DNA from: Nitrosopumilus sp.
Lineage (GTDB): Archaea > Thermoproteota > Nitrososphaeria > Nitrososphaerales > Nitrosopumilaceae
Assembly: GCA_965223425.1 (NCBI GenBank)
Contig: CBDCWS010000001.1
Coordinates: forward strand, 40,572 to 104,571
DNA: 64,000 nt
Direction: 5' to 3'
The position numbers and the translations under genes are program-made. This document shows, one piece after another, positions 7,337 to 48,484 of the stretch (its first letter is position 1; each line of letters starts with the position of its first letter). The notes beneath the pieces are model-generated. The model was not told the DNA's origin. It did not search any database and worked only from the letters and a program-made list of their open reading frames with translations.

Positions 7337-7400
7337 TTAACCCCTATCCAGTGGGTAGGCAGACACGCCACCTTGCAGTGACGCTGGATATGTCTGCCAA
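7337..7400 (-). ncRNA. Putative pseudoknotted RNA in the tnpB 5' leader (copy 2)
   Basis: See 809-872; G-U wobbles and a GCAA tetraloop favour the minus strand. Confidence 0.7.
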
Positions 7401-10916: not shown

Positions 10917-11253
10917 ACATTAGAACCTCCGAGCAGGGCGCGTTGACCCCACTGGTCGTGTTTATCTGCTTTGAAATGATATAGGGTGTGACGCTTATGG
11001 TAAGTAGTGTAGTATAGTGGTTGCCTAATAGTTGCGTCAGTTATCCTTTAGACGTGCAGCCCTGCTGATTTGTTCGGGTAGCAACGCAAAAAAAATCACA
11101 CTCTTTTCGCTTGTGTTTCCTGCGGAATTTCTGGGTTTTTTTCATTCTACACTTCAGAATAAGGTGGGGTTGAATTGTGGGCGGGTATGTGGTATAACGG
11201 AATACAAGAAAAGTTTTGGACTTATTTTGAATTTAAAAGTGAGGTTTATATCA

Positions 11254-11568
11254 ATGAATGAGAAGAAAAAAGTTTTTATCTCGTGCGTAGAGGAAGACCG
11301 ACCGTTTATTGAAGGATTGCATCGTGATTTAGAAAACTATGGATTTGAGACTTTCTGGTATGCAGAAGATTCGCCTGCCGGAGTAAGTTTTAAAAATCAT
11401 ACCGAAAAGGAAATAAACAGCTGTGATCATTTTTTAGCGTGTTTTTCGGAAACCTCAACAAAAAAAGAACAGAGCGATATGAGAAGGGAACTGACTCTGG
11501 CATGTGAAAAACATAAAACACTGCCACTGGACACCAACTGGTTAATATGTTTAACGTGGGTTCCATAA
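11254..11568 (+). pseudogene. TIR-domain protein truncated by IS982
   Basis: KVFISC..DRPFIEGLHRDL..GFETFW..D..AG..IN.CDHFLACFS..RREL; the ORF ends inside the IS982 left IR. Confidence 0.8.
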
Positions 11569-20631: not shown

Positions 20632-20728
20632 TAGTTTAACGCCTATAGATTTGAGTATACGGCTGATTACAGAGGAATCACACCTATATTTTTCTGCTAT
20701 CCTAACTGTTGACTAAAGTTTGGACAAT

Positions 20729-21776
20729 ATTAGACATTATAACGATTTAATTGTAGGTTTAGTTGGTTTATGATAAACTCAGAAGAAATACCGTCTTGGA
20801 GACCAACTGATGACCCGCTATGAAACACTCAAGACTAAACCAAAACGATTCCTGTCGCTGACAGGATATACACCCGAGGAGTTTTCGGCACTTCTTCCGT
20901 CCTTCTCCAAACGATTTTTAGAGTTCGTCGAAACACAGACGCTTGATGGCAAACGCCGAAAGAAGCGTCGGTACACTCTCTATAAAAACAGTTGCTTACC
21001 GAGTCGGGAAGATCAATTGCTCTTTATTTTGATTTACCTGCGAAAAGCCATGACGCAAGATGTCCTTGGTGAACTCTTCGGTATGTCTCAACCTGTCGCC
21101 AACAAATGGATTCATCGACTCTTGCCTGTGTTGAATCGTGCTTTGGCAGACCTTGGAGAGTTGCCATCACGGGAGACGACTCTCTCAACTGTTGACGCAT
21201 CTACGCAGATCTCGGCTAATACTCAGGCTTTGAAACACTTTTTTTCATGATGCCACGGAACGTCCGATTCAACGTCCAAAAGACGTAGAAGCACAACAGG
21301 CACATTACAGTGGTAAAAAGAAGCAACACACCGTCAAGAATAACTTGATGATTAATACCGATAGCAAAGTGGTGTTATTGACGCCTTGCTATGAAGGCAG
21401 GATACACGACAAGCGCATCGCCGATATGACGATCTATTTCCTGCCACGCGGTAGTTATTTGTATCAAGATTCAGGTTTTCAAGGTTTTTCAGTTCCGGGT
21501 GTCAAGATGATTCAACCAACGAAGAAACCCAAAGGTCGAGATCTGACGGTTCAAGAGAAAGCGAAGAATCGCGAGATTTCGTCAATACGCATACGCATTG
21601 AACACGCTATTAGTGGTATCAAAAGATACCGTATCGTCAAAGACAAGTTGCGCAACTACAAAAAAGGATTTACCGATTTAGTCATGGAAACTTGTTGTGG
21701 GTTACACAACTTTAGATTAAACTTCAGACCTTGGTCTTATCAGATACCTTGCGAGTAAATCATTATAATGTCTAAT
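20729..21776 (+). mobile_element. IS5-like (ISL2-type, HTH + DDE_4) element, two ORFs joined at a T7 run
   Basis: IRs ATTAGACATTATAACGATTTA / TAAATCATTATAATGTCTAAT; orfs 20810-21250 and ~21243-21758 (HDATERPIQRP..YSGKKK.HT, QDSGFQG, RIRIEH). Confidence 0.85.
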
Positions 21777-22520: not shown

Positions 22521-22596
22521 ACCGATTGAGCGGATAATTTGCGGAACTCGTGTGGTGTGCTTACGCACTACTCCGATGCCTGATTCTATGTAACTA

Positions 22597-22746
22597 TTAT
22601 CGCTTCCCATCCTTAAACCGTGCGATAGTGTCCCGTTCGGCTAACTCTGCCTTGGCGTAATGGGCAGGCATCTCGGACAACTTCCAACGTCCTGCGACTT
22701 GCATATCGACGACGGTTGCCCCGGCTTGGGCAAGTGAGACGGCAGA
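22597..22746 (-). pseudogene. 3' tail of a Cre-like tyrosine recombinase (remnant A)
   Basis: Translates SAVSLAQAGATVVDMQVAGRWKLSEMPAHYAKAELAERDTIARFKDGKR*, homologous to the end of 35709-36480. Confidence 0.85.
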
Positions 22747-22851
22747 GAGACTAATTGTTGTGTTGCTGAATGTAACGAAAATAGACGAATGTTATCTTCA
22801 TAATGTGGTTTTGCGGAATATACACCAAAAACGCATCAAGCCGTCAGTCCA

Positions 22852-23625
22852 TCAAAAAGTGCTATATTTGGGATCCGTTTTTAGTGCTGCCCAAGTGATA
22901 GCGAGTTTTCCGGCACTTTCGACAGATACACCGATGGTTGCTAGCTTTTTGATTTCATCGGCGTTGAGTGTGAGATTATAAATCATGACTTCGTCGATTA
23001 CCCCTCGGAAATATCTGGCACCACAGCATTCATCCCAACCGAATTTTAGGTTCATGACTGTCTGTTGGATATGCTCAATCTCATTCACTGGAGTTTCAAG
23101 TGTGTCGGTCGCTGCGTGATAAACGTAACTTGTTGCTTTCTCGGGTTGAATCGTTATCGCGACGAAAGCCCATTCATCTTGCGGAATGCGCGGTGCGCCT
23201 TGCCAACCATAGGTATGTGCTGAATTATTGTTCCATACATACGCCAAGGTGCCGTTCTCGGAAACTCCCATCCAGAACGGGGTTTGACTTCGGCCGACAA
23301 CGATACCTGACCAGTCCTCGGTTTTCTAACCGTTGATCCAAGCACCTACCGTAATCGTGTCTGTAAGGAGATAAAACGCATCGTTAACGACGACATGTCC
23401 GTCAAACCCGTTAACTTCAACGGCACCATTTACTTGACCATTGGCAGTCCACTTTGCCCCGTTCTTCAATTCAACATGGTTTCCATTACCGGATCTATCT
23501 TCCCCATTACCATCCAGTGGCCAGTAGCCGACAAGTCCTTCCATGAGTTCTGCCGCTGGGTCGTTGATACACCAAACGCTCATGGCGAATGCAAGGACAG
23601 TAATAACTCGCAAATTTTCTGACAC
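22852..23625 (-). pseudogene. LamG/concanavalin-like secreted protein with an in-frame TAG (23326-23328)
   Basis: LVGYWPLDG..D.SGNGNH; FRGVIDEVMIYNLTL; C-terminal GKLAITWAALK; the two ORF pieces are in the same frame. Confidence 0.85.
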
Positions 23626-23664
23626 TTCAGGTCTTCTCCTTGTTTGATATTATTGTGCGCTTGT

Positions 23665-23853
23665 GCCGCGTTCGGCGAGTTCAGTTTTAGCGTAGTGTGC
23701 TGGCATTTGTGAGGATTTCCAGCGTCCTGCGACTTGCATATCGACGACAGTTGCGCCGGCTTGTGCGAGCGAGACCGCTGAACCGACGCGCAGGGAATGC
23801 CCGGATATGAAACCATCCACGCCAGCATCAGCTGCCCGCTTTTTGATATGCGT
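23665..23853 (-). pseudogene. Near-3' fragment of a Cre-like tyrosine recombinase (remnant B)
   Basis: IKKRAADAGVDGFISGHSLRVGSAVSLAQAG...HYAKTELAERG. Confidence 0.85.
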
Positions 23854-23889
23854 AGAATAAGTGTATGGGATGTATCCTGATTATCGCTA

Positions 23890-26871
23890 CTAATTGGATT
23901 CTTCAAGTGTAAAACGTAGCACGCCGCTGCCTATAGTGCCGACATAAAGCACATTTCTATCAACAGCGAGAGAGGTAATGAGGACGGGAATCGCCGGTGT
24001 AACTTGTTGCCATGTATCAGAATTCTCTTTCAGTTGATATACCTGTTGATTGCTTGTTCCATACACTGTTGTTCCGTCCACAGCGAATTTGTCTATAATG
24101 ACTGGTGTGCCTTCCAGATCGGTTGCCGTATGCCAGTGCATCCCGTCGTCCGAATGTACGACACCCTTATCGGTTGCGACATAGACAGTTGATCCAGCAA
24201 AGACGATTGTGTTGAAGGCGGTAACAGAAAACGGGAGATCCGCGGTGACATCGCTCCACGTGTTTCCTTCATCAAAAGATTGAAAGAGGCGTCCATCGTG
24301 TTTGCCAACGTAAACGATTTCATCTAAGGCGGCAAGTTTGAGAGATAAGGTAGAAAAATCGCTTACACTATCAAAATCGTAAGTCGAATTACCTTCATCT
24401 GTTAATCCGGTATCATACCATTCAGTCATGCCGGGTTTCCATCTGAGGAGTTTCTGACCGAATGGCATATAGTAAGCAGAATTGCTGACGGCGAAACTCC
24501 CGAAAAGCGAGTACATAAGTTCAGCCAAGCTTTCCTCTATGATTTCACTGTAATCTTCACTGGATGTATCTACATTAACATCTTTAGTATTTAGTTTTTT
24601 CCTTTCTCCAATGTTTTTCTGGTCATCATCTTGAACTGTTTCCGAAAACATATTTTTATTTTTTTCTTTTATCAACTCGTTATAGTCTGATATCTTTAAA
24701 ACTGGCATTCCTGAGACAGAGAGTAATGTGTTGTCCTCGGCAGATAGATGGAAAAGTTGAGGCGATATTTCTTTTACTCCTCTGGCATAAACCACATCCT
24801 CGAATTTCATAATACTTGTGACGTTGTCTATTCCAGCCGAAACATCGACCCACGATTCACCACCATCAGATGAAGAGACTAGCGTTCCTTCAATGTTCGC
24901 GTAGAGTACATTATCCGCAGAAACCAAATTTAGCACAGTTGTCTTTACCAAACCTGTATTAAATGGGTGCCATGTTCTGCCCGCATCGGTCGTGTGATAG
25001 ATCCCAGACGTCCCGCTTTTGTAGAAAGTATTCGCATCCAAAGACACAAGCGTGGAGACGTCTCCTATATTCGGGGTATTTGCCCAAGTTTCACCTGAAT
25101 CGTTTGAGTAATAAGTATTTCTTATGTCTACAATCAAAAGGTTATTTTCTGATGCTATCATTATAATGTCCAAAATCTTTTCTATTTCTGCCGTGTTAAA
25201 GTCAAAGCCATTTTCGTCTGAGGAATCTATCTTCGTGAAGTCTAATGGCTGCCACGAATCGCCTAAATCCCCTGACCGATAAAGTGAGGGAGACACCTCA
25301 TCTCTCTCTCTTATTGACATTGCTATGAAGGACGGCGAAATGGTCTGACTCTTGGGCTCTCGTCCTACAACAACATAGAGTTGATCTTCAGCACTTGTTA
25401 ATGCTCTAATATTCTCAGCATTTCCCACTGATAAATGTTCCCAACCCTCTGAACGGCGACGATAGAGTCCAGCATCGGTCCCGACAAACAGTGTGTTTCC
25501 AATGGCGGTGATTGCATGAATCTTTCTATCACTAATGTCGTCGTTCAATGATGTCCAAGATTTCCCAGCATCTGCAGATTGGAATACACCATTAACAAGC
25601 CCTAAGTAAAGTGCCTCATCCGTTATGACGATTCCAATTAACTGTCCCTCTGGGCGCGTTCCCAACATATTCCACGTCTCACCCCTATCAAGGGATGTGA
25701 GCACCTGTGTATCGGAGATGGCGTAGAGGGTATTATTCTGTTCTGTCATTTGCCACGATCCTTGAATAGGAATACTACTGTTGACACGACGCCACGCGTT
25801 TGTGTCGTCGGTTGATCTGTAGAGATCTGTGTTTGCTACAGCGTAAAGATCTCTGTTAGATGCAATAAACAGATTTTGCACGCTACCGCCTTCGGGACCG
25901 CCTGTCTGTACCCATTGAGGACTTGGAGTCGGAATCTCTGTTGTGTCAACAGGTACTGTGGTAAAAAGCGATGCGTCTGGTTTCTGTCCTGCCCCTGGAT
26001 TTTTACCCGGAGTATCTGAGTTTCCCGCTTGACTCCGAACCGCAGGTTTCGCGGGTGAATCTAAAACGAAAACCGCATCAATAATTTCAACCTTCGGTTC
26101 CGAAACAGCGTCGAGGCTGTAAGGCTTCTGGAAACGTGAGAGGTACTGTGTCCCAACACCCATCAGTAGGAAAATCAAAACAGCAGAAGCGGCAGAAAGT
26201 GCCAAAGGTGCTATAGGTTTACTCACAGAGGTTGAAATCGGGGGCATACGCGAAACTTCGCGCATGATGTTTTCCGCCCACTGATCCGGGAGTTGGAAGC
26301 TCCCAAGATTGTGTTGAATCACGTCTTCCTCTGTTCTCAGGCGATTGCGTGCGCGACTGAGACGACTTTTAACCGTATTCTGGGAGACACCGAGAAACTC
26401 GCTAATGACTTTGATCGTCATCTCACCGAGATAATAGAGCGTCATTACCGTCCGTTCACTTTCTGGCAGTTTTTCGAGCAGTTCCTTGACGACTTCGCGC
26501 CGCGTTTCATCAGCATCCGCTTCCCGTTTTTCTTCTACATATTGAGAATATGACACTTGATCCACCTCGCTAGCATCGGTTTCCTCCAAGGACTGTTCCG
26601 GTAGGGCACGCTTTCGGAGCCAATCACGACTCATGTTCGCGGCAATCACATAGAGCCATCCCGGGAATTGCTTATGATTTTTCAATGTTCCGAGCTTCTC
26701 ATACGCTTTGAGAAATGCATCTTGGGCAATCTCTTGCGCGATGTGAAAGTCGCCGACCTTCCGCCATACAAGCGCGTGTACCCCTTTCTGATACTTCTTA
26801 ACTAACGGACCGAATGCGTCCTGATTTCCCTGTAATATCTGTTGAATGAGTTCAGCATCGCTTTGTGCCAC
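23890..26871 (-). CDS. ECF sigma-70 factor fused through a TM segment to a BNR/YCF48-like beta-propeller
   Basis: Region 2 (AQEIAQDAFLKAY) and region 4 (IKVISEFLGVSQNTVKSRLSRAR); TM at about aa 225-245; repeated S.D.G.TW motifs. Confidence 0.9.
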   Translation of the reverse strand: MAQSDAELIQQILQGNQDAFGPLVKKYQKGVHALVWRKVGDFHIAQEIAQDAFLKAYEKLGTLKNHKQFPGWLYVIAANMSRDWLRKRALPEQSLEETDASEVDQVSYSQYVEEKREADADETRREVVKELLEKLPESERTVMTLYYLGEMTIKVISEFLGVSQNTVKSRLSRARNRLRTEEDVIQHNLGSFQLPDQWAENIMREVSRMPPISTSVSKPIAPLALSAASAVLIFLLMGVGTQYLSRFQKPYSLDAVSEPKVEIIDAVFVLDSPAKPAVRSQAGNSDTPGKNPGAGQKPDASLFTTVPVDTTEIPTPSPQWVQTGGPEGGSVQNLFIASNRDLYAVANTDLYRSTDDTNAWRRVNSSIPIQGSWQMTEQNNTLYAISDTQVLTSLDRGETWNMLGTRPEGQLIGIVITDEALYLGLVNGVFQSADAGKSWTSLNDDISDRKIHAITAIGNTLFVGTDAGLYRRRSEGWEHLSVGNAENIRALTSAEDQLYVVVGREPKSQTISPSFIAMSIRERDEVSPSLYRSGDLGDSWQPLDFTKIDSSDENGFDFNTAEIEKILDIIMIASENNLLIVDIRNTYYSNDSGETWANTPNIGDVSTLVSLDANTFYKSGTSGIYHTTDAGRTWHPFNTGLVKTTVLNLVSADNVLYANIEGTLVSSSDGGESWVDVSAGIDNVTSIMKFEDVVYARGVKEISPQLFHLSAEDNTLLSVSGMPVLKISDYNELIKEKNKNMFSETVQDDDQKNIGERKKLNTKDVNVDTSSEDYSEIIEESLAELMYSLFGSFAVSNSAYYMPFGQKLLRWKPGMTEWYDTGLTDEGNSTYDFDSVSDFSTLSLKLAALDEIVYVGKHDGRLFQSFDEGNTWSDVTADLPFSVTAFNTIVFAGSTVYVATDKGVVHSDDGMHWHTATDLEGTPVIIDKFAVDGTTVYGTSNQQVYQLKENSDTWQQVTPAIPVLITSLAVDRNVLYVGTIGSGVLRFTLEESN

Positions 26872-27018
26872 TACAAGTATCCTCCGGAATCATAATTGTC
26901 TCTTAATTTACTAAACTTTGGACAATTTTCAGTAAGTTGCTTGAAGCCGCGTGAAACCCAACGACTGTCATAGAATCTCTGCTTATGTTTTAGAATGCGG
27001 CGTATCCTTTCAGGGCAC

Positions 27019-27099
27019 ATAGCACTCCGCTGGCGTGCGAGGGTTTGTGTATACTTTTTCTATTCTCACTGTGAAGCAATAGCACTCCGCTGGCGTGCG
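27019..27099. repeat. Two direct copies of ATAGCACTCCGCTGGCGTGCG (REP/MITE-like)
   Basis: Copies at 27019-27039 and 27079-27099. Confidence 0.65.
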
Positions 27100-27720
27100 G
27101 TATTTTTCTCAGAGTTCCGAGAGTTGTGAAACCTGCGGAAAAATACACAATCCTTTGAAAACTCAACTTGCACGTGACATGAATTGTCCAAACTTTAGTC
27201 TTAATTTAGGTGACGTAATTTTAATATCAAAAGGTTGCAAGCCTCATAGGGAATGTGGAAACGATCCGGAAATTAATGCTATTAAATGCGATCAAAGAAG
27301 CAGCAAACATCGTAATTTCAATTTTGTGTAAAGGCGTAAACCCGCGTGTGCATTGGGTTTGTTGGTAAACCGATGTCCTCGTTTTTCCACACGATGCAAC
27401 CTTCCCACAGCCGAAAATCGTCACCTTAATCAAAGGCGGTTAGATTCAGCGAAGTTGCTACTGGCTATCTAAAAGCACTTCTATTTTATACGACACAACT
27501 TTCATTTTACAGGAGAAAACCATGCGATTTGTAATAATTAACCTGTTTCTGGTCTGTTTGCTACTGCTCGGCATCGGTTACCTTGCTTTCGGTGATGCTG
27601 TGTGTGTAACAAAACCTAAATCCAACAATCACCTGTACATTCACCATGTAGACGCTATGTTCTGTGAAGTATCTTTAGAAACCTTCTGAGATATATGCAC
27701 GATTTAAGGAGATTTAGAAA

Positions 27721-28989
27721 ATGACTACAGTAATTTTGCAATCAAAAACTCGCGATTCCATCCGCTTGTGGGGCAAGACAATAACGCTTCTGTTAGCAGC
27801 TTTATTGATGACTTTGGGTTTTCAACTTTCACCTCATACCGAGGCAAATCAGTTTCTCTTTGATATGGAGGCGATTAAAGATGCGGGCAGCTTAGCAGTG
27901 AAACTCCAAGATACACGCGCTATGGTATCCAAATCTATCAGTGTGCAATTATCCAATGATACACAGGGATTGTTGGTTGCATACAATGGTACCAGCAGCC
28001 CGTCCACGGAGCTACAGAAGGCACTGCTTTCAGATCTGAATCGGCTTCTTCAAGTCGGATCACTCTACGATGCCCAACTGTTCGCCGGTGTTGAACTTAG
28101 CGAACAGACGCAGGTACTCATCGCGCAAAACCCACAAAATCAGGATGCGCTGGTTCATCTAAACCGTCTTCTCTTAGCAGATGCCTACCCTCATGAATTT
28201 GCATCGCTTTCAGAGCAACAACCCTATCAACATTCTAAAGGGATCGAGGCATGCAGAGAAAATCTGAGGCAGATAACACTCGCGCGTAAAAACTACCAGT
28301 CTTCCAACGCAAATTCCGAGCCGCGGTGGCTTTCTGAACTGTCTCCGCAATATTTGGACGAAAAAATGCTTCTCTGCCCTGCAGACGCAACAGCAGGGAG
28401 ACCCGGTGTTCTCACCGAAGATGCCGCAGACCCAGCACTGCCGTGCAGTTATCTCTATGAGGCGCGCCCCTCCAAGAAAACAGATCAAGAAATTCTCTGG
28501 GCGGACGAAGGTAAGATGACCCCCATCGTGCGATGCCAACACCATCATCTCAATTTAAGCCTCAGCGGTAAACTCTATCGGAACGGACCGCAAAGAGGCA
28601 TCTATACGAGTAACAAAACGGGATTTTCCTTGCTAAATGACTTCTTGCGGGACTTAAGCACACAACGTGGAGAAGCATTTCTCAAGACGCAAGAGGGTAG
28701 GATCCAACTAAAACGAGCAACCGAAGAATTAATTCTCAATAAATTTGTGCCAAAAATGCTTAGAAACGTGAAGAAAGAAATCACTTCTCAGCTTGAAGCG
28801 CAACTCGGAAAAGACCTACTCAAAACCCCAATGGGCACAGATATATTCAAACAAGTATACGTGCAGGTAACCGATGTTATTGAGGAAAAACTACTCGCTC
28901 AACTTCAAGCACAACTTGGAGCAGAATTTTTTCAGACGCAAGAGGGGCAAGGTGTCCAACAGCAGTTGTCTGCGTTAATGTCGCCTTGA
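27721..28989 (+). CDS. Secreted protein with a pseudopilin-like core
   Basis: Signal/TM N-terminus; C.ENLRQI..A..NY...P.WLSEL.P.YL....LLCPAD motif. Confidence 0.6.
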   Translation: MTTVILQSKTRDSIRLWGKTITLLLAALLMTLGFQLSPHTEANQFLFDMEAIKDAGSLAVKLQDTRAMVSKSISVQLSNDTQGLLVAYNGTSSPSTELQKALLSDLNRLLQVGSLYDAQLFAGVELSEQTQVLIAQNPQNQDALVHLNRLLLADAYPHEFASLSEQQPYQHSKGIEACRENLRQITLARKNYQSSNANSEPRWLSELSPQYLDEKMLLCPADATAGRPGVLTEDAADPALPCSYLYEARPSKKTDQEILWADEGKMTPIVRCQHHHLNLSLSGKLYRNGPQRGIYTSNKTGFSLLNDFLRDLSTQRGEAFLKTQEGRIQLKRATEELILNKFVPKMLRNVKKEITSQLEAQLGKDLLKTPMGTDIFKQVYVQVTDVIEEKLLAQLQAQLGAEFFQTQEGQGVQQQLSALMSP

Positions 28990-29072
28990 TGGACTACCCT
29001 TCAAAGGAATCTATGTACGATTGCTATTTCAAAGATTAACGACTCATCTAAAAAAATAGAGGAGAAAAGACC

Positions 29073-30503
29073 ATGTTAATGACTTTGATTCAAAAAGAGA
29101 TTATGCATCATGTTCTCAGCGTCCGGTTCGTCGCACTCCTGATAATGTGTATGCTCCTTGTCCCGCTCACCCTTTCTATCAATTATCGTAGGTATAACCA
29201 GAACCTCGTTGACTACCAGGAATCGGTGAAACGCACACAGGCAGAAGCGAAGGAAAATCCACCGAATGCGCAGGATCCAAATGCAGAGGTATCCAAACTT
29301 TTCCTCAAGCCGACACCGTTAAGCATCTTCGCAAATGGTTTAGAGGAGGCACTGCCTACCTACCTTGGTATGACACGTAATGGGGTTCGGCAAGGTTCAA
29401 CAGGGCTTGCGCAGGCATCCCTGTCATACGCGCTCGGGAATCTTGATTTTCTGTTTATTGTGGGAACTGTATTCAGTTTGCTGGCACTGCTGTTTACGTT
29501 TGACGCTGTTGCCGGAGAGAGAGAAGCTGGAACACTTCGGATAAACCTATCGAATTCGCTTCCTCGAGATGTGTTCTTGTGGAGCAAGTTGATCGGAGGA
29601 TACACTGTATTTGTTATTCCGTTTTTGGTGTCTTTCCTTTTGGGGTTGCTTTTTCTCGTCTGGCAGGGCTTTCCATTAGGCGAATTCAAGATTGCGCTGC
29701 CAGTGGTGGGTCTCACGGTTATATCGTTGCTCTACATTGCCGTATTTTTTGCAATAGGCGTGTTCATTTCAACCTATCTCGACAATTCCAAGACTGCACT
29801 CATCATTGCTTTTACCTTTTGGGTGTTTGCGGTGCTGATTGTGCCACGCGGGGCGTTTGTGATTGCTAAACTTGTCGCACCCACTCGGACAGAGCAGTCT
29901 GTTTATACGGAAAAGATGGCACTTCGCAATAACTTGACGAAAGATAAGGAAGAAAAGATTCAGAAAAAGATGGTTGGCACCTTGGGGACCAGTTTTACGC
30001 TAAACGACCCAAAGACGCAAGAAAGATTGGACGAAATCAGAAAACCGATTGAGGAACAGTTTCGAGTAAATTTCCAGAATCAAACCGAGAAGATTGACAA
30101 GAACTACCAGCGCGAGAAGGATCGGCAAGAGCAAGTTGGAGAGATGCTTTCTCGGATCGCACCCACGTCTTCTCTGATCTATTGTGTGATGAACCTAACA
30201 CAAACGGGCAAGTTGAAGAGGGATGTCTACTTTCAAACCGGTGAGCGGTACTACAATCAACTGGATGGTTCGTATTTCAGCGAAATTTCTGACGATACGC
30301 TGGCACAGCTACTACAATTGACGAATCGGATGAATTCCGATTCTGAGTCAGAAAAAAATAAAATCACGCCGCCACCAACGCTGGCAGAACCGGCTTTATC
30401 GGAAACGTTGCGTGGTTCTACAGCAGACGTGTTCTTGCTCTGTCTTTTTGCCTTAGTGTTTACGACGGTAGCTTTTCTGAAGTTCTTCAGGTCCGATATT
30501 TAA
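29073..30503 (+). CDS. ABC-2 type transporter permease
   Basis: LI.KE N-terminus, FDAVAGEREAGTLR motif, multiple TM helices. Confidence 0.9.
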   Translation: MLMTLIQKEIMHHVLSVRFVALLIMCMLLVPLTLSINYRRYNQNLVDYQESVKRTQAEAKENPPNAQDPNAEVSKLFLKPTPLSIFANGLEEALPTYLGMTRNGVRQGSTGLAQASLSYALGNLDFLFIVGTVFSLLALLFTFDAVAGEREAGTLRINLSNSLPRDVFLWSKLIGGYTVFVIPFLVSFLLGLLFLVWQGFPLGEFKIALPVVGLTVISLLYIAVFFAIGVFISTYLDNSKTALIIAFTFWVFAVLIVPRGAFVIAKLVAPTRTEQSVYTEKMALRNNLTKDKEEKIQKKMVGTLGTSFTLNDPKTQERLDEIRKPIEEQFRVNFQNQTEKIDKNYQREKDRQEQVGEMLSRIAPTSSLIYCVMNLTQTGKLKRDVYFQTGERYYNQLDGSYFSEISDDTLAQLLQLTNRMNSDSESEKNKITPPPTLAEPALSETLRGSTADVFLLCLFALVFTTVAFLKFFRSDI

Positions 30504-30546
30504 TACAGTCACACCCCATAAACAAATGAACCAGAGGAGAAAACCC

Positions 30547-31281
30547 ATGTTAGAAACCCGCGACCTTACGAAAGTCTACAACGAAGACGTTTTAGCCGTC
30601 AACAATTTGAATCTGAAAGTAGACGACGGCGAAATCTATGTCGTTCTCGGTGCGAATGGTGCCGGGAAAAGCACGACGATGTCGATGCTCCTGAACTTCA
30701 TCGAACCCTCAAGCGGTACGGCACTTGTAGATGATATCGAGATTCCAAAGTTCCCACTTGAGGCAAAAAAGCACCTCGCTTACATCTCCGAGAACGTCGA
30801 ACTTTATCGCAACTTCACGGCGCGGCAAAACCTGACCTTCTTCGCGAAACTCGGTGGACGCAAGAAGGTATCCAATGCAGAAATTGATGCCACCCTTGGA
30901 CGTGTCGGTTTGCCGGAGGCGGCTTTTGGGTGGCGCGTCAAAACCTTCTCCAAAGGGATGCGTCAACGTCTGGGTATCGCGATCACAATTATGAAGAACG
31001 CACGAGCCATATTACTTGATGAACCGACCTCAGGGCTGGATCCCAAGGGCGGTGCCGATTTCCTGAATCTGCTCCGCGAGTTAAGAGAAGAAGGGAAATC
31101 TGTCTTTATGTCCACGCACGACATCTTCCGAGCAAAGGAGATCGCCGACAGAATCGGTATCCTCGTGCAAGGCAATCTCGAACGAGAGTTAACCCGCGAA
31201 GAAATCCAAAAAGAAGACCTTGAGGCGTTGTATCTCCACTATGTTGCTGGATACGAACCTGAAGAAGATGCCGCCGCATAG
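30547..31281 (+). CDS. ABC transporter ATP-binding protein
   Basis: Walker A GANGAGKS, signature FSKGMRQR, Walker B LLDEPT. Confidence 0.95.
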   Translation: MLETRDLTKVYNEDVLAVNNLNLKVDDGEIYVVLGANGAGKSTTMSMLLNFIEPSSGTALVDDIEIPKFPLEAKKHLAYISENVELYRNFTARQNLTFFAKLGGRKKVSNAEIDATLGRVGLPEAAFGWRVKTFSKGMRQRLGIAITIMKNARAILLDEPTSGLDPKGGADFLNLLRELREEGKSVFMSTHDIFRAKEIADRIGILVQGNLERELTREEIQKEDLEALYLHYVAGYEPEEDAAA

Positions 31282-31304
31282 CGTCCACGGGACTTAGTAC
31301 CTAC

Positions 31305-31334
31305 CGATTAGCCAAATCGCGGTTTGGCTAATCG
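31305..31334. repeat. Intergenic palindrome
   Basis: CGATTAGCCAAA-TCGCGG-TTTGGCTAATCG. Confidence 0.65.
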
Positions 31335-31365
31335 ATAACAAGTCTTGACAAGGGAACTAATAAAA

Positions 31366-33621
31366 ATGCGAATAAATATCCTTATGACTGTTTTCATTAC
31401 CTCAATCGGAATGCTGCTCTCTATATACACATCAATGGTATTTGCAGTAGACCCTCAACCCGCTAATGGGAACAGTCCGAAAACCAAAGATGAACAGAGC
31501 CGTCAAATCAAGATAGAAGTCGAACGTCTGAAAATGGAACTCGCAGAAAACCTAATGAAAAAGAAACTCGTTGAACTTGAAAATCTCAAGGCGATGATGA
31601 TGGAGGCAAACAACATTGTCACCGTCTCTGAAGTCAATAAAGCCGAGGAGGATTATGAAACTGCCGTCTCCGACTATGAACAAGCGAAACTAACGCTGCA
31701 ACAGGTGGAACTCGACTCGCTCCAAGATGAATGGCATATCACCGTCGAAAACACAAACTTGTATGAATCTGCCGATGGAAAGGAAACCTTCTCGATCACC
31801 TTGCGGAATAGTTCATCGCCTGTCAAGCTCGTTGAAAGTTCCAAAGTGCTGGAAAGAGATATTATCATCAGCGCACAGATCGATGACATCTTCGTCTCGA
31901 TTAAAGAACAGGAAGATTTTGGCTCAAGTGGCGCGATTATAGCCGAACCTTATGAACAACGAATTCCGACGCTCAAAGAGGGTGAATCCATTACGTTGGT
32001 GTTTGAACTCATAAAAGAGAACGTGCAAGATGTCGTCGTAGAACTGGAATACTCGGATCGTGTTGAAGATCACAATATTCACCTCAAACAGGAGGATCCG
32101 TATATTTCCGTCGTATCCGCACGGCGATATAAGGAAGGCGACCGGCGGCGTTTGGAAGTTGTCCTTACCTACGGTGCACTGAATGGCGAAATGGAAAAAA
32201 CAGACACTAACACCGCACAAGAAATCAATAACGTTTATGTCTCCATTAAAGACGACACGGACGCAATCATCGGATTCCCTTACGAATACCGCATCCCAAA
32301 CCTGAAAGATAAGCAAGAAAAAATACTCGATTTTGAACTCCGGCGAAATGTCGATAGTCTTACTGTTAATCTTAGGTACCTCGACACCGACCATCCCTAT
32401 AACATCCACTTAGAAGAGGACACACGCCACATCTCTATCCTCAGTGCGAAGAAGTTTCGCGTCGAGAACCAGATGATGGTGACAATTCAACTCAAGAACA
32501 CCTCCACGACGGAGGCGATGCCGAGCAATGCTACCCCCGAAGAGATCGCAGCAGCGAATGAGATTCGCGGCATTTATGTCTCCTTACTCGATGTCACCGA
32601 CGACACAAACATCGTCAAACCGTATGAAGAGAAAATCCAAGTTATCGGCTACAACGAAACCGTGGAATTGACGTTCCAACTCCAGAAAGATGTCGAGAGC
32701 CTCAAGGTATCACTGGATTACCCCGAACTCGCCGAACCCGATACACGACTCATCTATTTACAAAAAGAATCCGCATTGGATGTCGTAAACGTTAGTTCGC
32801 TACGCTTCTCGCAAGAGGGAAACTTGGGGAGCAGTGTCACCTACGACTTAACGCTCGATCGGTTGGCAGAAACGGAGAATACATTCCAACTACGCGTCAT
32901 TAACCTACTCAACCGACTCTCTTATGAATTCCAAGACCCCGAGACGAAATCTCGGCAGTCTCAGGTGAAGTTCACGCAAGAACAGTCGAAACGGAATCTG
33001 TCCCTGATTGTCTACCTACCGGAAGAATTGGATGCCTCCTATCTCGACAGCACGCTTGAATTCTATGTCGCTGTCCTTGACGAAGCCGAAGCAACCGAAC
33101 TCGGCGGTGTCAACAACCGGTTGGACCTCCCTGCGGATAGGATTGCAAGTATACAAGGCGGTGTCGAGCGGTTTGAACTGATTCCAAAAGGTGTTCCAGA
33201 GATTGAGGTATTTGTGCCGAATGCGTTCCAGACTATCAAAATCGGGGAAGCGGTCAACATGACAGCGACGCTACAGAACATCGGCACCCGCGACCTCGTC
33301 GATATTCGCATGCTCGTCGATGTCAACACCGATTGGAAATACATCGTTACGCCAGAAGTTATCGGTTCGCTCAAACGGAATGAGGAAAAAGAGATACAGT
33401 TAACGCTGAGTCCACCTGCGGACATCGGGGTCGGTGAATATCAGGCGAAGTTGAACGCTGAAGTCACAGTGGATAACCGAAAATTTGAGGCACGCGATCG
33501 GTCAATCACCGTGCAGATCAAGTCAAAGACGCAAATGTCGGTGACGACCCTGCTCTTCGGCGCGTTAATACTCCTCATGATTGCGATTGTCATTGTCACA
33601 ATCCGCATTAGTAGACGTTAG
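31366..33621 (+). CDS. Membrane-anchored periplasmic protein with internal Ig-like repeats and a NEW3-like domain
   Basis: Signal peptide, coiled coil, 3 repeats (I..VYVSI..PYE.RI..L..L.FEL), NEW3-like C-terminal domain, C-terminal TM ending ISRR. Confidence 0.8.
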   Translation: MRINILMTVFITSIGMLLSIYTSMVFAVDPQPANGNSPKTKDEQSRQIKIEVERLKMELAENLMKKKLVELENLKAMMMEANNIVTVSEVNKAEEDYETAVSDYEQAKLTLQQVELDSLQDEWHITVENTNLYESADGKETFSITLRNSSSPVKLVESSKVLERDIIISAQIDDIFVSIKEQEDFGSSGAIIAEPYEQRIPTLKEGESITLVFELIKENVQDVVVELEYSDRVEDHNIHLKQEDPYISVVSARRYKEGDRRRLEVVLTYGALNGEMEKTDTNTAQEINNVYVSIKDDTDAIIGFPYEYRIPNLKDKQEKILDFELRRNVDSLTVNLRYLDTDHPYNIHLEEDTRHISILSAKKFRVENQMMVTIQLKNTSTTEAMPSNATPEEIAAANEIRGIYVSLLDVTDDTNIVKPYEEKIQVIGYNETVELTFQLQKDVESLKVSLDYPELAEPDTRLIYLQKESALDVVNVSSLRFSQEGNLGSSVTYDLTLDRLAETENTFQLRVINLLNRLSYEFQDPETKSRQSQVKFTQEQSKRNLSLIVYLPEELDASYLDSTLEFYVAVLDEAEATELGGVNNRLDLPADRIASIQGGVERFELIPKGVPEIEVFVPNAFQTIKIGEAVNMTATLQNIGTRDLVDIRMLVDVNTDWKYIVTPEVIGSLKRNEEKEIQLTLSPPADIGVGEYQAKLNAEVTVDNRKFEARDRSITVQIKSKTQMSVTTLLFGALILLMIAIVIVTIRISRR

Positions 33622-33631
33622 AGAAAAACAC

Positions 33632-34993
33632 ATGAAAATTGTAATGAACAAAAGATTGACGGCACTTGCAGTCTGTTTATTTTTTAGTATTGCAGGTGCC
33701 GTTTCAGCGCAGCGACTCGTCTCGCTTCAGCCAAAACGCGCAATAGAACTCGCTTTACAAAATAACGAAGCGGTAAAAAAAGCAGAGAAAGTGGTAGAAC
33801 GCGCCAAGGCGAACCTTCGCGTGTCCAAAGCCGTTTACCTACCACAAATAGGGCTCACCGGCGAATATCAACGCCAAAAGGATGGCGATATCGACGAGAG
33901 AGATTATCTCACTCGCGCACAGATGAGCATGCTCTTCGCACAATTCGGCGAGATTCCCCAAGGACTTGATGACGCCCAGGAAGAGATGCGTAAAGCCGAA
34001 ATTGAATACGAACGCGTGAGAAAAGAGAGTGTTCACACCGTTCGGAATCTCTGGAATAATATTATTCTCACACAAGAAGAGATTGAAGAACGCGGTGCGA
34101 TTGCCGCGGAACTTGAGAAAAAACTCGAAGGCACACAAATCAAACAAACCCAAAAGCGGATCCCGTTCCTCAGTCAACTCAACACGGAACTTGAATTGTC
34201 GGAACAGCAACTCGCACTCAACACACTCCAGCGACAACTCGATGTAGACACCGCCGAACTCATCAGTCTCATTGGACTCGACCCACTGGTACAGGTCATC
34301 CTTTCACAGTCGCTCCCTGACGATGACGTGACATTGGAAGCTGCCGTTGAACTCGCACTCATCAGCAACCTTGACCTGCGCGACTTACAAGGTGACATCG
34401 CCCGCCAAGAACGTCTTGCTGGAGAGACAATCTGGTATCGAATCCCTGAACTCTCAGCTGCAGCGCGCTACAAAGATTTTGGCGTGCAGTTGGAACAGCA
34501 TCAACAGAACCAGACGTGGGACGCAAAAGCCTTCTACGATCCAGTGATACTTGACCGCGGACAAGATGTACGCCATCAAGACGGATGGGAACTGCGTTTC
34601 AACCTCAATATTCCGCTATACGATGGGAACAAGACGAGGCATCTCCGCTCCCGAGAACTCGCCGAACTTGAGTGGCTCCAGTTGGAATACATCGAAAAAA
34701 CGAAGTCAATCCGTGTAGAGGTACGACGTGACTACCGTGCGGTCACAAATGCGAAAGAACGGATGGAGATCGAGGAAAAGCGTGTGAGAATCCGTGAGCA
34801 ACATTTACGGACAATAGAGCGCGTGCTTGATGAAGTCACAGTTGAAATACCCGGTTATCAAAGTTTGACTTACAACGACGCCTTTCAAACACAAGCCCAA
34901 TTTACGGAGGCACAACGCGTCTATTACCAGACGCGTCGAGACTATGCAAAGGCAAAGGAACGACTCCGAGAAACAATGCAATGGATCGAATAA
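33632..34993 (+). CDS. TolC-family outer-membrane efflux protein
   Basis: AIELALQNNE, YLPQIGL, LNIPLYDGNK repeat architecture. Confidence 0.85.
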   Translation: MKIVMNKRLTALAVCLFFSIAGAVSAQRLVSLQPKRAIELALQNNEAVKKAEKVVERAKANLRVSKAVYLPQIGLTGEYQRQKDGDIDERDYLTRAQMSMLFAQFGEIPQGLDDAQEEMRKAEIEYERVRKESVHTVRNLWNNIILTQEEIEERGAIAAELEKKLEGTQIKQTQKRIPFLSQLNTELELSEQQLALNTLQRQLDVDTAELISLIGLDPLVQVILSQSLPDDDVTLEAAVELALISNLDLRDLQGDIARQERLAGETIWYRIPELSAAARYKDFGVQLEQHQQNQTWDAKAFYDPVILDRGQDVRHQDGWELRFNLNIPLYDGNKTRHLRSRELAELEWLQLEYIEKTKSIRVEVRRDYRAVTNAKERMEIEEKRVRIREQHLRTIERVLDEVTVEIPGYQSLTYNDAFQTQAQFTEAQRVYYQTRRDYAKAKERLRETMQWIE

Positions 34994-35027
34994 AATACTA
35001 TTCATAATCACACATAGGGAGAAAAAA

Positions 35028-35645
35028 ATGAGAAATCCTCTAACGATACACACTGAAATCAAGCATTTCGATGAACAGGAATTTGTCACACGTGCTCAAA
35101 ATGGTGATGCCGAGGCGTTTAATCCACTTGTAAACAAATATCAGCACAAAATCTATAACTTGATTTACCAACAGCTTCGCGACCGAGAAACAGCAGAAGA
35201 TCTCAGTCAAGAAGTTTTTCTGAAGGCGTGGCGAGCGCTGCCGGACCTCAAAGACCAGTCTATATTCTATACTTGGATTTACAAAATCGCTGTTAATTGT
35301 TGTATTGATTACATCCGGAAACGAAAAAGGCAATTTGTTTATGCGTGCGAGGAATTGCCAGAAAATCCAGACGATGTTCTGCCGATGCTCCAGACACAGC
35401 CATCGCCTTGTGAAATCCTTGAGAAAGAGGAACTCGGAGAGATTATCCGCAGAGCGGTGCATAAACTACCATCTGGACAGCGCAGTGCGTTCCGTTTGCG
35501 GTACTTTCAAGAAATCCCAATAAAAGAGATTGCCGTGCGTATGAACAGGACGGAAGGCACGATTAAAACGCACCTGCACCACGCACGTCGAAATCTCCGA
35601 AATATGTTGCTTCCTTATCTCCAAGATGAACCGATTGCATGGTAA
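35028..35645 (+). CDS. ECF sigma-70 factor
   Basis: AEDLSQEVFLKAW, FYTWIYKIAVN, IKEIAVRMNRTEGTIKTHLHHAR. Confidence 0.9.
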   Translation: MRNPLTIHTEIKHFDEQEFVTRAQNGDAEAFNPLVNKYQHKIYNLIYQQLRDRETAEDLSQEVFLKAWRALPDLKDQSIFYTWIYKIAVNCCIDYIRKRKRQFVYACEELPENPDDVLPMLQTQPSPCEILEKEELGEIIRRAVHKLPSGQRSAFRLRYFQEIPIKEIAVRMNRTEGTIKTHLHHARRNLRNMLLPYLQDEPIAW

Positions 35646-35708
35646 TGATTTGCTATCACTTCAGACAATGCTGTTGGAGTCTATCACTTGATTAAGTGTG
35701 CATCCTGC

Positions 35709-36480
35709 TTATCGCTTTCCATCTTTGAATCGTGCGATTGCGCCACGTTCAGCGAGTTCTGCTTTTGCGTAGTGTGCGGGCCTCTGTGAGGATTTCCAGC
35801 GTCCTGCGACTTGCATATCAACGACGGTTGCGCCGGCTTGTGCGAGTGAGATGGCTGATCCGACGCGTAGGGAATGCCCGGAGATAAAACCTTCCACGCC
35901 AGTATGTGCGCGTTTCTGAATAATACGCCGTGCGGAGACAGTTGTGAGGCGTTCCGACTGGACGTGCCCACCGCGACGGATATGACGGAACACCGCACCG
36001 CGCGTGATCTCTGCACGTTCGCGATACTGCTTTAGGAGCTCACGGGTATTCTCACAGACATACAGCGTTTCGCCCGCACCCTCTTGATCGGTTTTTGACG
36101 ATCGGAGCGTAAGCGTACTGCCTTTGAAGTCACCGACGTTCACAGCCACTACCTCAGAGATCCGCAACAGACAATCGCTCATCAGCCGGATCATCACCGA
36201 ATCCCGCAGTCCGATAAGCGTGCCTTCCGTTTCCGCATAGATACAGACCCTTTCCACATCCTGCCATATCAACCCGTCTACCTGTCCGCGTCCTCTGTCC
36301 TTACCCTCTCTGCGGATACCCGCCAGTGTCGCCTGCGTGATAGGGAAGTTGAGGGTTTCCTGTGATTGGTGTTTGAGTTGCCACTTCACTGCGGCGACGA
36401 GCTGTCCGATCGTTGCCGGGGATTTGCCGTTATCGTGCAGGCTGGTGATGTATTTGAAAGCAAATAGCGTTGTATAAACG
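35709..36480 (-). pseudogene. Cre-like tyrosine recombinase, N-terminus replaced by AT-rich DNA, catalytic domain intact
   Basis: LLRISE, SKTDQ, GHSLRVG, GRW, HYA; the ORF-track N-terminus lies in unrelated AT-rich sequence. Confidence 0.8.
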
Positions 36481-36951
36481 CTTTTATATAACGCTAAAAA
36501 CACAGATTTAGATACGAGTTTTTGTGGTTTTTGAAAATAACAGGGAAGGCAGAGACCTAATTCTGTTTGCCCGTTTTTTCGGTGTATTTTATATGTAGGG
36601 ACAATAGATAATTTCGGAATTGACATTTAATTTGAAGATAAAGAAGGGGACAAATCTCAAAAAGGTAGGAATCATGAATGGATAGAAATCAACGAGGGTT
36701 TTCATAAGTTAATCAAAGATGAATTTACTGAAATATATGAGAGTATGCCGAATGAAAAGGAATATGATAAATAGTCAAGATTGTAACTTATTGATATTAT
36801 CGATGCATTCAAGAAACGCTTGTGAATCGCCATCAAAGCCTCCGACTCCTATTCGGCTTGTTTTAACAGCAGACGGCTTTACTGCTCAGAAAACGTTCAT
36901 TTTGAAATAGTAGACACACACGAAGTTTATAGATGCTGTCGGGGGAATGTT

Positions 36952-37615: not shown

Positions 37616-37810
37616 TCAATTTTTTGTGAGAAAACTATTTCTCCTGAGATGGATTTCACCGGCAATGGAGCGCAATTTTAGCAACGGTCCGCCGCCATTA
37701 ACCATTCCCTTTAAGACACCTCTGTTAGGTTGAACGGGAAAGTCGCTTGATATGTTGCCTTGCGTTTGGGCATCTACGCTAACTGCGATACCCGGATGGA
37801 GCGCGACATC
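37616..37810 (-). pseudogene. DUF4097-like C-terminal remnant
   Basis: SGGEIDV..VDAQTQGNISSDFPV..LKGMVNGGGPLLKLRSIAGEIHL. Confidence 0.5.
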
Positions 37811-38009
37811 TATCTCTCCACCACTGGACGTGTGGCACTTCTTACGCCCGATACGACTCGATTCGGTTAAGTTCACAAGAAAGGAAGGATATGATGTCAA
37901 TATTAAGACGATCAACACTTCTTATGTTCACGCTGATACTACTCCTGCTCATCTGATGCATAATATGAGCGTGCAGGCGATTCTCGAAAGGATTTTTTGG
38001 ATGTTTCTA

Positions 38010-38429
38010 ATGAAAAGAATTGTACTATTCATAATTTTGTTGTTTAGTTTTTCAATGATCTCTTTAGCGGATAACGCCAGATTAGAAGCACAGATAGATG
38101 CTAAGCAAGATGTCAACGAAACTGTATGGGCTTTGACTGGGTTTTCGGTCCCATTACTTATTGGTGGCTATTATATGGCTGGTGGTACGACAGGCGGTAC
38201 AATCTCATATAGTGTGTTTGTTCCGGGTGTGTTGGTTGGCGTGAGTACCCACTATTATCCGATTTCGCCTCAATCTGACCGATTTTTAGGGAAATCGCCG
38301 GCTTATGTCTCGGCGTATGTAGCCGCTTATGAATCCGAAGTCAAATCACTTCGGCGGCGGTCTCTACTTTGGGGCTTTGGATCGGGCGTTGGCTTGTTGA
38401 TTGTTTTAAGAGCGATGGGGATTCTATAA
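38010..38429 (+). CDS. Membrane/secreted hypothetical protein
   Basis: MKRIVLFIILLF signal peptide; P..RFLGKSP.YV..Y..AY motif; C-terminal TM. Confidence 0.6.
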   Translation: MKRIVLFIILLFSFSMISLADNARLEAQIDAKQDVNETVWALTGFSVPLLIGGYYMAGGTTGGTISYSVFVPGVLVGVSTHYYPISPQSDRFLGKSPAYVSAYVAAYESEVKSLRRRSLLWGFGSGVGLLIVLRAMGIL

Positions 38430-48200: not shown

Positions 48201-48484
48201 CATGTTGTGAATTTATGCACGAGTTCAATATCTTCTGAATCAAGGGTATAAAAGGCATGTACAACTTGGTTTTCAATTTCAGGTCGATGTACATAATCCA
48301 GTGGGCGTACATCATCTACACCAGAATACACTCCATCTATTGGATTTAAGTTATAAAGTGCTTTTAGTATAGCAGTCTTACCAGATTGATTTTTACCCAC
48401 TAAACAGGTAACATCATCTATATCAAACTCGCCAGAATCATGAATGCACAGAAAATTTGTAATACGCACTTTAATAAGTTTCAT
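45288..48484 (-). pseudogene. OLD-family-like ABC ATPase + TOPRIM nuclease (647 aa when restored), split by IS3
   Basis: GKNQSGKT, LLLDEPG, YTTHSP, LLVEGSSD, IPVGG..VLVD; the frame VDYRNR-DKQKIK is restored on IS removal; visibly AT-rich. Confidence 0.85.
45672..46920 (+). mobile_element. IS3-family element with a 4-bp TSD (CTCT); orfA 45751-46041 and orfB to 46880, A-run -1 frameshift site
   Basis: TG..CA imperfect IRs; CTCT at 45668-45671 and 46921-46924; WVGDITY, HHSDQG, WENGYAE. Confidence 0.95.

Follow-up and report, generated by a model that had tools for sequence, protein, structure and literature searches.

The window analyzed here is a stretch of 64,000 nucleotides (nt) of contig CBDCWS010000001.1 (GenBank assembly GCA_965223425.1, positions 40,572 to 104,571), and the subject is a recombinase gene that is repeated on its minus strand. 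The three repeats, referred to below as copy A, tail B, and tail C, are broken, 5'-deleted copies of one multicopy Cre-type tyrosine recombinase gene of Poribacteria. The locus is a record of past events, the wreckage of an array rather than an active element, and any further movement of its units would need a recombinase supplied in trans. Its features are listed in the order in which they are met on the minus strand.

36510..36515, minus strand: outer motif GTATCT, 12 nt upstream of site L (family consensus GTATCC)
36464..36497, minus strand: A-type site ("site L"), a 14-6-14 dif/lox-like palindrome, in gene sense TTAGCGTTATATAA-AAGCGT-TTATACAACGCTAT
35709..36452, minus strand: recombinase copy A, codons ~63-310 plus stop
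35679..35716, minus strand: right end of unit A, the last two sense codons and stop AGCGATAA, then GCAGGATGCACACTT-AATC-AAGTGATAGAC
23889..35645, both strands: 12-kb block between copies A and B, with chromosomal-type synteny
23855..23888, minus strand: solo right-end remnant, AGCGATAATCAGGATACA(TCCCATA)CACTTATTC, holding the stop region and a B-like left arm and centre
23652..23860, minus strand: tail B, recombinase codons ~226-299
22852..23625, minus strand: LamG/concanavalin-like gene (PF13385), a pseudogene with TAG at 23326-23328
22576..22792, minus strand: mini-unit, a 45-nt leader (22747-22792), then tail C (22597-22746, codons ~258-310), then the 3' flank

The first-pass annotation of this DNA had reported three minus-strand recombinase repeats flanking the LamG open reading frames (ORFs), and they lie where it placed them, with a similarity far beyond chance. 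A blastn comparison of the recombinase region with the whole 64-kb window returned partial copies at 23652-23828 (87.6% over 177 nt, E 2e-59) and 22597-22746 (80% over 150 nt, E 5e-34) and no further copies; by tblastn, the same two matched at 83% over 65 aa and 87.5% over 48 aa. The same three-copy family was recovered by an independent repeat search of the window. An 18-nt sequence spanning the stop of copy A (35699-35716, the 18-mer) recurs at 23871-23888, as had been noticed, with 16 of 18 positions identical. This second 18-mer lies one base past the TAG stop of an ORF for an ECF-sigma/BNR-propeller protein (23890-26871). Such a match would arise by chance within 100 nt of a tail with an estimated probability of ~4e-6. 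Nucleotides 1-15 of the 18-mer also recur unchanged in the 3' flank of a related copy in L048, one of the loci (L numbers) with which the window was compared.

Copy A had been given as the recombinase at 35709-36480 whose C-terminal coding part recurs. It is itself not complete, since family codons 1 to ~62 are absent. Compared with its relatives, it carries a ~230-nt 5' internal deletion and a one-codon deletion. The family, of ~310 aa, can be aligned to it only from YITSLHDNGKSP onward (about nt 36452, near codon 62), and the upstream portion of the 305-aa ORF of copy A is unrelated to the recombinase family. The N-terminal DNA-binding domain is incomplete in all three window copies, which start near residues ~62, 226, and 258, and complete in the relatives P0024 and P0033. 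Copy A keeps the catalytic R-K-H-R-W-Y residues and is probably inactive.

The true 5' end of tail B lies near 23860, at about codon 226. At the other end of tail B, the last ~10 codons and the 3' flank, both retained in L003, are gone. The leader of tail C is non-recombinase sequence that recurs together with the tail in L003, L029, L036, L039, and L043, where the flanks are all different. A reading of this leader as a degenerate A site, which goes by a match to an A-type arm at 8 of 14 positions as judged by eye, is doubtful. The 3' flank of the mini-unit reads GCGATAA[TAGTTACATAGAA]TCAGGCAT, a motif interrupted by a 13-nt insertion. In the LamG gene, codon 100 has changed from TGG to TAG (23326-23328), and the L003 orthologue, which is 90% identical, is intact. 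There LamG is the gene 3' of a full recombinase, behind a B-right-like stretch and a promoter-like motif. That LamG follows the recombinase in another genome too speaks against the earlier interpretation. The LamG ORF and small ORFs of 163, 165, 173, and 186 aa had no NCBIfam match, and scans of the window for Rfam families and tRNAs gave no match.

Remnants of tyrosine recombinases of other families also occur in the window. A 112-aa C-terminal fragment is found at 41619-41957 (minus strand; PF00589 positions 73-170), and a 229-aa ORF at 52220-52909 (minus strand) is limited to the catalytic domain. With these two, the window has five recombinase remnants, every one of them on the minus strand. 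At 36796-36926, ~131 nt are absent from the otherwise collinear L033 (87% identity on either side); this may be a small insertion or a miniature inverted-repeat transposable element.

A Cre-type family and the sites beside its genes

The enzyme had been called Cre-like from the sequence alone, and this assignment stands: in an alignment to Cre, the protein has R, K, H, R, W, and Y at the corresponding positions. Copy A is matched by PF00589 at 5.5e-11. With phmmer, the full-length relative P0024 matched Cre at E 9e-7, and Cre was its best match of solved structure. The P0024 motifs LLRISE, SSKTD, GHSLRVG, GRWKS, and AHYAK align to Cre R173, K201, H289/R292, W315, and Y324, respectively. Scores with the NCBIfam models were 65.9 bits for XerD (cut-off 329.6), 63.8 for XerA/integron integrase (cut-off 220), 54.3 for XerC (cut-off 335), and 23.1 for XerS (cut-off 267). 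The family has more than 3000 homologues, and more than 120 clusters (90% clustering level) are above 83% identity; their sources are without exception Poribacteria or sponge assemblies. Among reference genomes, it is almost confined to metagenome-assembled genomes (MAGs) of Poribacteria, with several matches per genome, and the tails are widespread among these MAGs, as had been anticipated. A scan of viral contigs found no family relatives, and a literature search found no paper connecting Poribacteria with tyrosine recombinases.

Site L, which precedes copy A, is intact at 34 bp, and recombinase homology resumes 11 nt downstream of it at about codon 62. An A site is found ~30 nt upstream of full-length genes at no fewer than 15 loci (L002, L008, L009, L010, L054-L063, and L072-L073). 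The outer motif GTATCC, at a distance of N10-12, always accompanies the A-type left arm and is found in at least 12 otherwise unrelated left flanks. Terminal inverted repeats of the form GTATCC...GGATAC were considered and rejected, since only 6-7 nt are common and the sequence beyond differs, leaving an outer motif only. The second site type, B, has the canonical form ATTCTATACTT-N6-AAGTGTCGAAT (right arm AAGTRTNGAAT), a 28-bp palindrome of 11-6-11. A scan of JGI metagenomes with the B-site pattern gave two matches, both unrelated.

How these sites delimit DNA can be seen with P0033, a recombinase 93% identical to copy A and itself identical in 10 contexts. The DNA common to these contexts covers ~2.7 kb at >99% identity, with an A site at its left end (ATAGCGTTATATAA-ttgacg-TTATACAACGCTAT, 30 nt upstream of the ATG and always with GTATCC before it at N10-11) and a B site at its right end. 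The left arm of the B site is constant, and both the spacer (AGCGAT, TCGCAT, TCCGAT, or CGTCAA) and all sequence to its right vary. At the left edge, L056 has only the right A arm, and the A spacer differs in L061 and L062. The blocks of P0004 (4 contigs) and P0005 (2 contigs) likewise end at A and B sites; the P0004 module has a gene of 186 aa between the A site and the recombinase.

The same tendency was found when ~70 loci were compared all against all and the distinct ends of blocks with at least 90% identity were collected. Within 25 nt of the centre of A or B arms lie 39 of the 148 ends, compared to 1.4 expected (~28-fold), and none of the 148 coincides with the recombinase stop codon. 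At both site types, spacers differ between contexts while the arms are unchanged. The spacers also recur at separate junctions, AGCGAT six times, TCGCAT four times, and TCCGAT as well. In L029, a hybrid site directly before the recombinase gene consists of a B-left arm, TCGCAT, and an A-right arm. L056 has an A-left arm, with GTATCC, inverted at the far end of the module, opposite its A-right arm, which indicates an inversion at the site centre; its B-site spacer CGTCAA, read on the opposite strand, equals the A-site spacer TTGACG. The arms co-vary with the recombinase subfamily, an example being GTCCGATAA-N6-TTATCGGAC, present three times in L030. As judged by comparison of these junctions, DNA has been exchanged at the 6-nt centres of the A and B palindromes, and the family appears to shuffle gene modules at short palindromes just outside the gene.

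To the right of the B site lies a gene slot. An extended -10-like motif, TGnTATAAT, is found 20-40 nt past the B site in ~11 slots. These slots and a second piece of this kind in the window are as follows.

L054, L055, L057, L059, L061-L063, L066, L067, L005, and window 11141: slots with the TGnTATAAT motif
11141..11568, plus strand: canonical B site TTCATTCTACACTT-CAGAAT-AAGGTGGGGTT, extended -10 TGTGGTATAAC, and a TIR ORF at 11254-11568 (104 aa)

The motif predicts an outward promoter reading from the B site into the variable gene. In an all-against-all blastp comparison of eight slot ORFs, seven were mutually unrelated and there was one related pair; the idea that the slot genes are one fast-evolving family was rejected because only this pair was related. 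The slot of L060 holds a gene for a TIR protein. In most loci, the slot gene is followed by a paralogous recombinase gene, 54% identical to the first. The first-pass idea of variable cargo is supported in the family at large, which is associated with variable-gene exchange at specific sites. The piece at window 11141 matches the module end of L057 at 74% over 81 nt (E 1e-9). After its TIR ORF, where relatives have the second recombinase, there is an IS4/IS5-type transposase gene (11642-12541).

Small proteins travel with the P0033 module. L057 encodes at 6153-7343 (minus strand) paralogous small membrane or secreted proteins of 163 and 173 aa with the motif DRxxGKSPEYV. The C-terminal part (~38007-38429) of a window ORF at 37752-38429 (plus strand) is a distant homologue of them (26-29%).

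Gene ends, tails, and the 12-kb block

The 18-mer is the first 18 nt of the right end of unit A. After their stops, the relatives L048 and L044 carry CAGGATTCATACTT-GATT-AAGTGATCCAT and CAGGACCCATACTT-AGCT-AAGTGAGCCAC, and the inner arms ATACTT...AAGTG that follow the stop in copy A, L048, and L044 match the B site. We infer that the 18-mer combines the end of the gene (its final two sense codons and the stop) with the outer half of the left arm of a degenerate B-like site. In the window's subfamily, the arrangement is best read as a B-like site that touches the gene end, yet the tail itself is not the site. GCGATAATCAG..GGATACAC is kept after the stop in several diverged subfamilies, including the paralogue, and the sequences diverge just beyond it. 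A GGAT-type motif follows the stop in 11 of 49 unique flanks, compared to a background of 5.9%.

The solo right-end remnant at 23855-23888 has no recombinase body upstream and is joined directly to tail B at codon ~226. A second solo motif is located in L033 at 9686, separated by 58 nt from a preceding cargo gene and by 130 nt from the tail that follows; ~0.4 chance matches to the solo motif would be expected in 746 kb. The first pass had placed the solo 18-mer directly after the propeller stop, and it lies exactly at a synteny breakpoint, where L064 and L065 match the window up to 23889 and do not have the motif. A pre-existing attB beside the propeller gene was considered as its origin and rejected, since the TARA orthologues do not have the 18-mer.

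Another way to put these parts together is a self-encoded cassette platform, in which a unit would consist of a B site with its promoter, one exchangeable gene (TIR, LamG, or others), and a recombinase whose stop abuts the next B half-site. Such units would circularize and stack in one orientation, and the 18-mer would be half of an attachment site. The platform would resemble an integron whose cassettes each carry a recombinase of their own. We regard it as doubtful.

Two further stretches of the window resemble these ends. At 9647-9661 (minus strand), GCGATAATCAGCATA is identical at 15 of 15 nt to the 3' flank of P0005-type recombinases (L072/L073). The stretch lies inside a 346-aa ORF with no Pfam match, and its surroundings have no homology to recombinases. 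The match could be coincidental (~1e-3 by estimate), or the stretch could represent a third solo right end. At 100-215, a perfect 9-6-9 palindrome, GCAGGATTG-GCTTTG-CAATCCTGC, is enclosed by nested inverted repeats (CGGACGGGCGAGAG...CTCTCGCCCGTCCG). The GCAGGAT arm found there also occurs in a 9-6-9 palindrome directly after the tail of L042 and in the 18-mer.

Between copies A and B, the 12-kb block contains the following genes.

Minus strand: ECF-sigma/BNR propeller, 23890-26871
Plus strand: 422-aa ORF, ABC-2 permease, ABC ATPase, NPCBM-like protein, TolC/OEP, and ECF sigma

The TARA scaffolds L064 and L065 are orthologous to 23889-32207 at 83-86%, with homology ending exactly at the propeller stop, beyond which they encode PBP1A, AhpC, and LexA. 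L048 matches the window from 29778 to 35645. TolC/OEP has 407 homologues, many of them on Mb-scale chromosomal contigs, and appears to be roughly single-copy in Poribacteria chromosomes. Recombinase right ends flank the block on both sides, in direct orientation to each other. The claim that each remnant is followed by different cargo holds in that unrelated genes lie between the copies, but the 12-kb "cargo" is a chromosomal-type block and not a cassette.

The ECF-sigma/BNR-Sortilin propeller family is greatly expanded in Poribacteria, with at least 6786 homologues at E<=1e-30 among 8000 candidates scored, and the nearest relative of the window propeller outside the contig is 77% identical. 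Most of the 422-aa ORF (27721-28989, plus strand; no Pfam match) is absent from L064/L065 (27924-29050), and the ORF has three internal repeats of ~37 nt (28661, 28799, and 28910). Direct and inverted copies of TTGACTAAAGTTTGGACAAT are present at 26907-27210 and at 20701-20731, at the edge of an IS5-like element, and exact 21-nt repeats start 60 nt apart at 27019 and 27079. In Logan contigs from 4 runs, this stretch differs between populations, as shown by numerous alternative short skips at 26929-27079.

The replicon as a whole (ENA contig ctg830969_9x_c, 123,106 bp) looks like a plasmid. It is probably circular, as judged from the suffix "c" of its name, because ctg522447c is the name of a 4.87-Mb chromosome from the same data. 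Insertion sequences (ISs) abound in the window, which also contains ParA, RHH, TIR, OLD-family, RadC, and MT-A70 genes. An IS5-family element at 20729-21776 has 21-bp terminal inverted repeats that are 95% complementary, and its transposase is split into HTH_Tnp_4 (20810-21250) and DDE_Tnp_4 (21345-21758) parts. Other genes of plasmid or defence-island type include, all on the minus strand, a TnpB/Cas12f-like IS605 OrfB (6222-7316), an OLD-family AAA/TOPRIM ATPase (46904-48484), a RadC-like JAB protein (54994-56040), and an MT-A70 methyltransferase (8189-8728).

Whether the tails are special in themselves bears on the earlier model, which had put an attachment site inside the 3' coding tail and expected breakpoints to cluster. 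Neither part of it agrees with the data. Among 33 unique genes, synonymous-site identity is flat, at 0.34-0.39 in the tail and 0.30-0.43 elsewhere, which argues against a DNA site hidden in the coding tail, and recent junctions fall at the palindromes, with none at the stop codon. On a 290-nt scale, 21 tails have 5' breakpoints spread between q65 and q260, and a mild cluster at q143-154 is due to one old mini-unit lineage with a common leader. As causes of the 5' truncations, diversity-generating retroelements, other retroelements, and rolling-circle replication were considered and set aside, with no search made for a reverse transcriptase or HUH gene. The copies are co-oriented and alternate with unrelated genes, as had been described.

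Taken literally, that model makes the last ~150 nt of the gene plus the 18-mer an attC-like site at which cargo-plus-tail cassettes are inserted and excised singly. It would suit the constant 3' end and variable 5' ends of the tails, but there is no synonymous-site constraint in the tail, the stop-codon region is without dyad symmetry, and the blocks of recently moved copies end at A/B palindromes. The ~200-nt leader-plus-tail mini-unit is present in 6 loci with different flanks, as a mobile cassette would be, but its copies are 75-85% identical, old, and show no sign of recent spread. The solo 18-mer at a junction and the co-orientation of the arrays also fit the model. However, two genomes have LamG linked to a recombinase upstream of it, no tail follows LamG in L003, and the 12-kb "cargo" is a conserved chromosomal operon block. 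We consider this explanation very improbable.

In a multi-query census, 54 full copies, 24 C-terminal fragments, and 5 N-terminal fragments were found clear of contig ends, many of the loci having been retrieved through a C-terminal peptide pattern. Truncations that start at or near a site are those of copy A, 11 nt after its A site, and of a tail in L030, 25 nt after its site; the start of tail B coincides with the centre of the B-like half-site. All 8 extra fragments point the same way as the nearest longer copy, and 7 of them are found downstream of it.

Much of this could result from plain decay of a selfish multicopy gene, together with homologous crossovers between dispersed copies and an F-prime-like capture of chromosomal DNA, with the 18-mer as a remnant of a conserved 3' untranslated region. 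Such decay explains most features. Conservation of the protein is highest at the C-terminus (0.82-0.88 aa identity, compared to 0.16-0.5 at the N-terminus), and detection is therefore biased towards tails. Scattered 5' breakpoints, a fragment ratio of just 7:3 among those found incidentally, and a region full of IS elements and pseudogenes all agree with it, as does the lack of a nearby site at most chromosomal tails. Synonymous sites are saturated (~0.37), and the loss of post-stop homology among divergent copies therefore carries no information. Plain decay has more difficulty with the solo 18-34-nt remnant at the synteny breakpoint, which would need two independent deletions leaving a 26-nt island, and with the second solo motif before a tail in L033. 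It also does not predict the enrichment of the post-stop GGAT-type motif or its retention between 54%-identical paralogues, the three truncations that start 0-25 nt from a site, or the uniform orientation of the 8 fragments. On balance, plain decay is the main rival but unlikely to be the explanation.

Origin of the array and comparison with known systems

The explanation that we favor, with moderate confidence, is that the window holds a decayed array of site-recombining modules with Cre-type recombinases. In intact relatives, the recombinase is placed near the left end of a small module that has its A site on the left and its B site on the right; past the B site come the predicted outward promoter, one variable gene, and usually the second, paralogous recombinase. 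Modules may be joined or swapped between plasmid-like circles and chromosomes by site-specific recombination, possibly through cointegrate formation and resolution as in the dif modules of Acinetobacter. Joining of modules would stack co-oriented recombinase-cargo-recombinase arrays. Redundant recombinase copies would then be eroded by deletions that begin at a site or beside it and extend into the gene, and the survivor of such decay would be a 3' tail with a right-end half-site. Along the minus strand, the window can be read in these terms as an A site, copy A, a B-like site, and a captured 12-kb block, followed by a solo right end fused to tail B, the LamG pseudogene, and the leader with tail C.

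Several points weigh against a decayed module array. Its support is entirely comparative, and site recombination by an enzyme of this family is a candidate activity. The palindrome after the stop has a centre of 4 nt and not 6 and matches the canonical B arms at 6-7 of 11 ungapped positions; it may be no site at all. The right edge of the variable gene has no site, with only the ribosome-binding site of the next recombinase being conserved (3' ends of 7 genes). The ratio of 3' to 5' fragments falls from 24:5 to 7:3 when incidentally found fragments alone are counted; the data are suggestive of polar decay without establishing it firmly, and the 3' excess is partly one of ascertainment. For most chromosomal tails (L034-L052), no site of either type lies within 6 kb, and these tails resemble plain relics. 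The Logan contigs from the 4 runs, consulted for circles and empty sites, break inside the repeats, and their "joints" are paralogue chimeras. Lastly, host Xer proteins may contribute.

The sponge-symbiont Poribacteria are unculturable, and their mobile DNA is almost undescribed. If a module array is the correct explanation, their genomes and plasmid-like circles would be rearranged by home-grown Cre-like enzymes at two short palindromes, one of which would also act as a slot for the expression of variable genes, in part of a defence-like kind (TIR, for example). It would also explain the presence of chromosomal operons on circular replicons in this case. The family would offer a natural set of diverged recombinase/target pairs with 6-bp spacers, which could be raw material for genome engineering (PMC10250229). 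The window itself is sobering in this respect, as all three of its recombinase copies are dead.

Cre-type recombinases with a palindromic target beside the gene include Dre/rox, Vika/vox, and ~500 predicted pairs (PMC10250229). The Poribacteria family resembles Cre/loxP of phage P1 in being a two-domain protein of ~310 aa with the equivalents of R173, K201, H289, R292, W315, and Y324, and in having a perfect or near-perfect 34-bp palindrome immediately upstream of the gene, with arms that are kept and a spacer that differs between copies. It differs in that the site is 14-6-14, compared to 13-8-13 for Cre, and its inner arms, TATAA-N6-TTATA, are dif-like. The family is also hugely multicopy per genome with decayed copies being common, and its modules have a second, unrelated 11-6-11 palindrome at the other end and an outer GTATCC motif.

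Plasmid dif modules of Acinetobacter are gene modules bounded by 28-bp 11-6-11 sites (pdif sites; PMC13141974, PMC6449649). Likenesses to these are the modules bounded by 28-bp 11-6-11 sites, the junctions at sites, the shuffling between plasmids and chromosomes, the same spacer at different junctions, the inversions, and the tandem module arrays. Unlike dif modules, which use the XerC/XerD of the host, the Poribacteria modules encode their own Cre-like paralogues. There are two palindromic site types rather than one asymmetric XerC/XerD site, and one of the two bears a promoter and a single-gene slot.

The behavior of the locus had been called integron-like. This is apt for the exchange of variable genes at specific sites but not for a site in the 3' gene end, since the sites are placed outside the gene. 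As in integrons, a tyrosine recombinase lies beside a site with an outward promoter, followed by unrelated single genes, and the elements are co-oriented. However, the 3' ends of the Poribacteria cargo genes do not have an attC-like folded site, only the ribosome-binding site of the next gene being conserved. The recombinase genes run in the direction of the cargo and are found repeatedly between cargo genes, instead of standing divergently at one end of a multi-cassette array. There is one variable gene per site in place of a long cassette array, and the integron-integrase model scored below its cut-off.

XerS/difSL, XerH/difH, and archaeal XerA/dif are single-copy systems for chromosome-dimer resolution, with a dif-like site beside the recombinase gene. 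The Poribacteria family shares with them a site beside its own recombinase gene and a 6-nt spacer. It differs from these single-recombinase systems in being multicopy, modular, and often dead, and in its XerS and XerA scores of 23-64 bits compared to cut-offs of 220-267. As far as the compared loci can tell, the features that would set the Poribacteria modules apart from the known systems are their 6-bp spacers, two palindrome types, multicopy module-encoded recombinases, and putative promoter-bearing single-gene slot.

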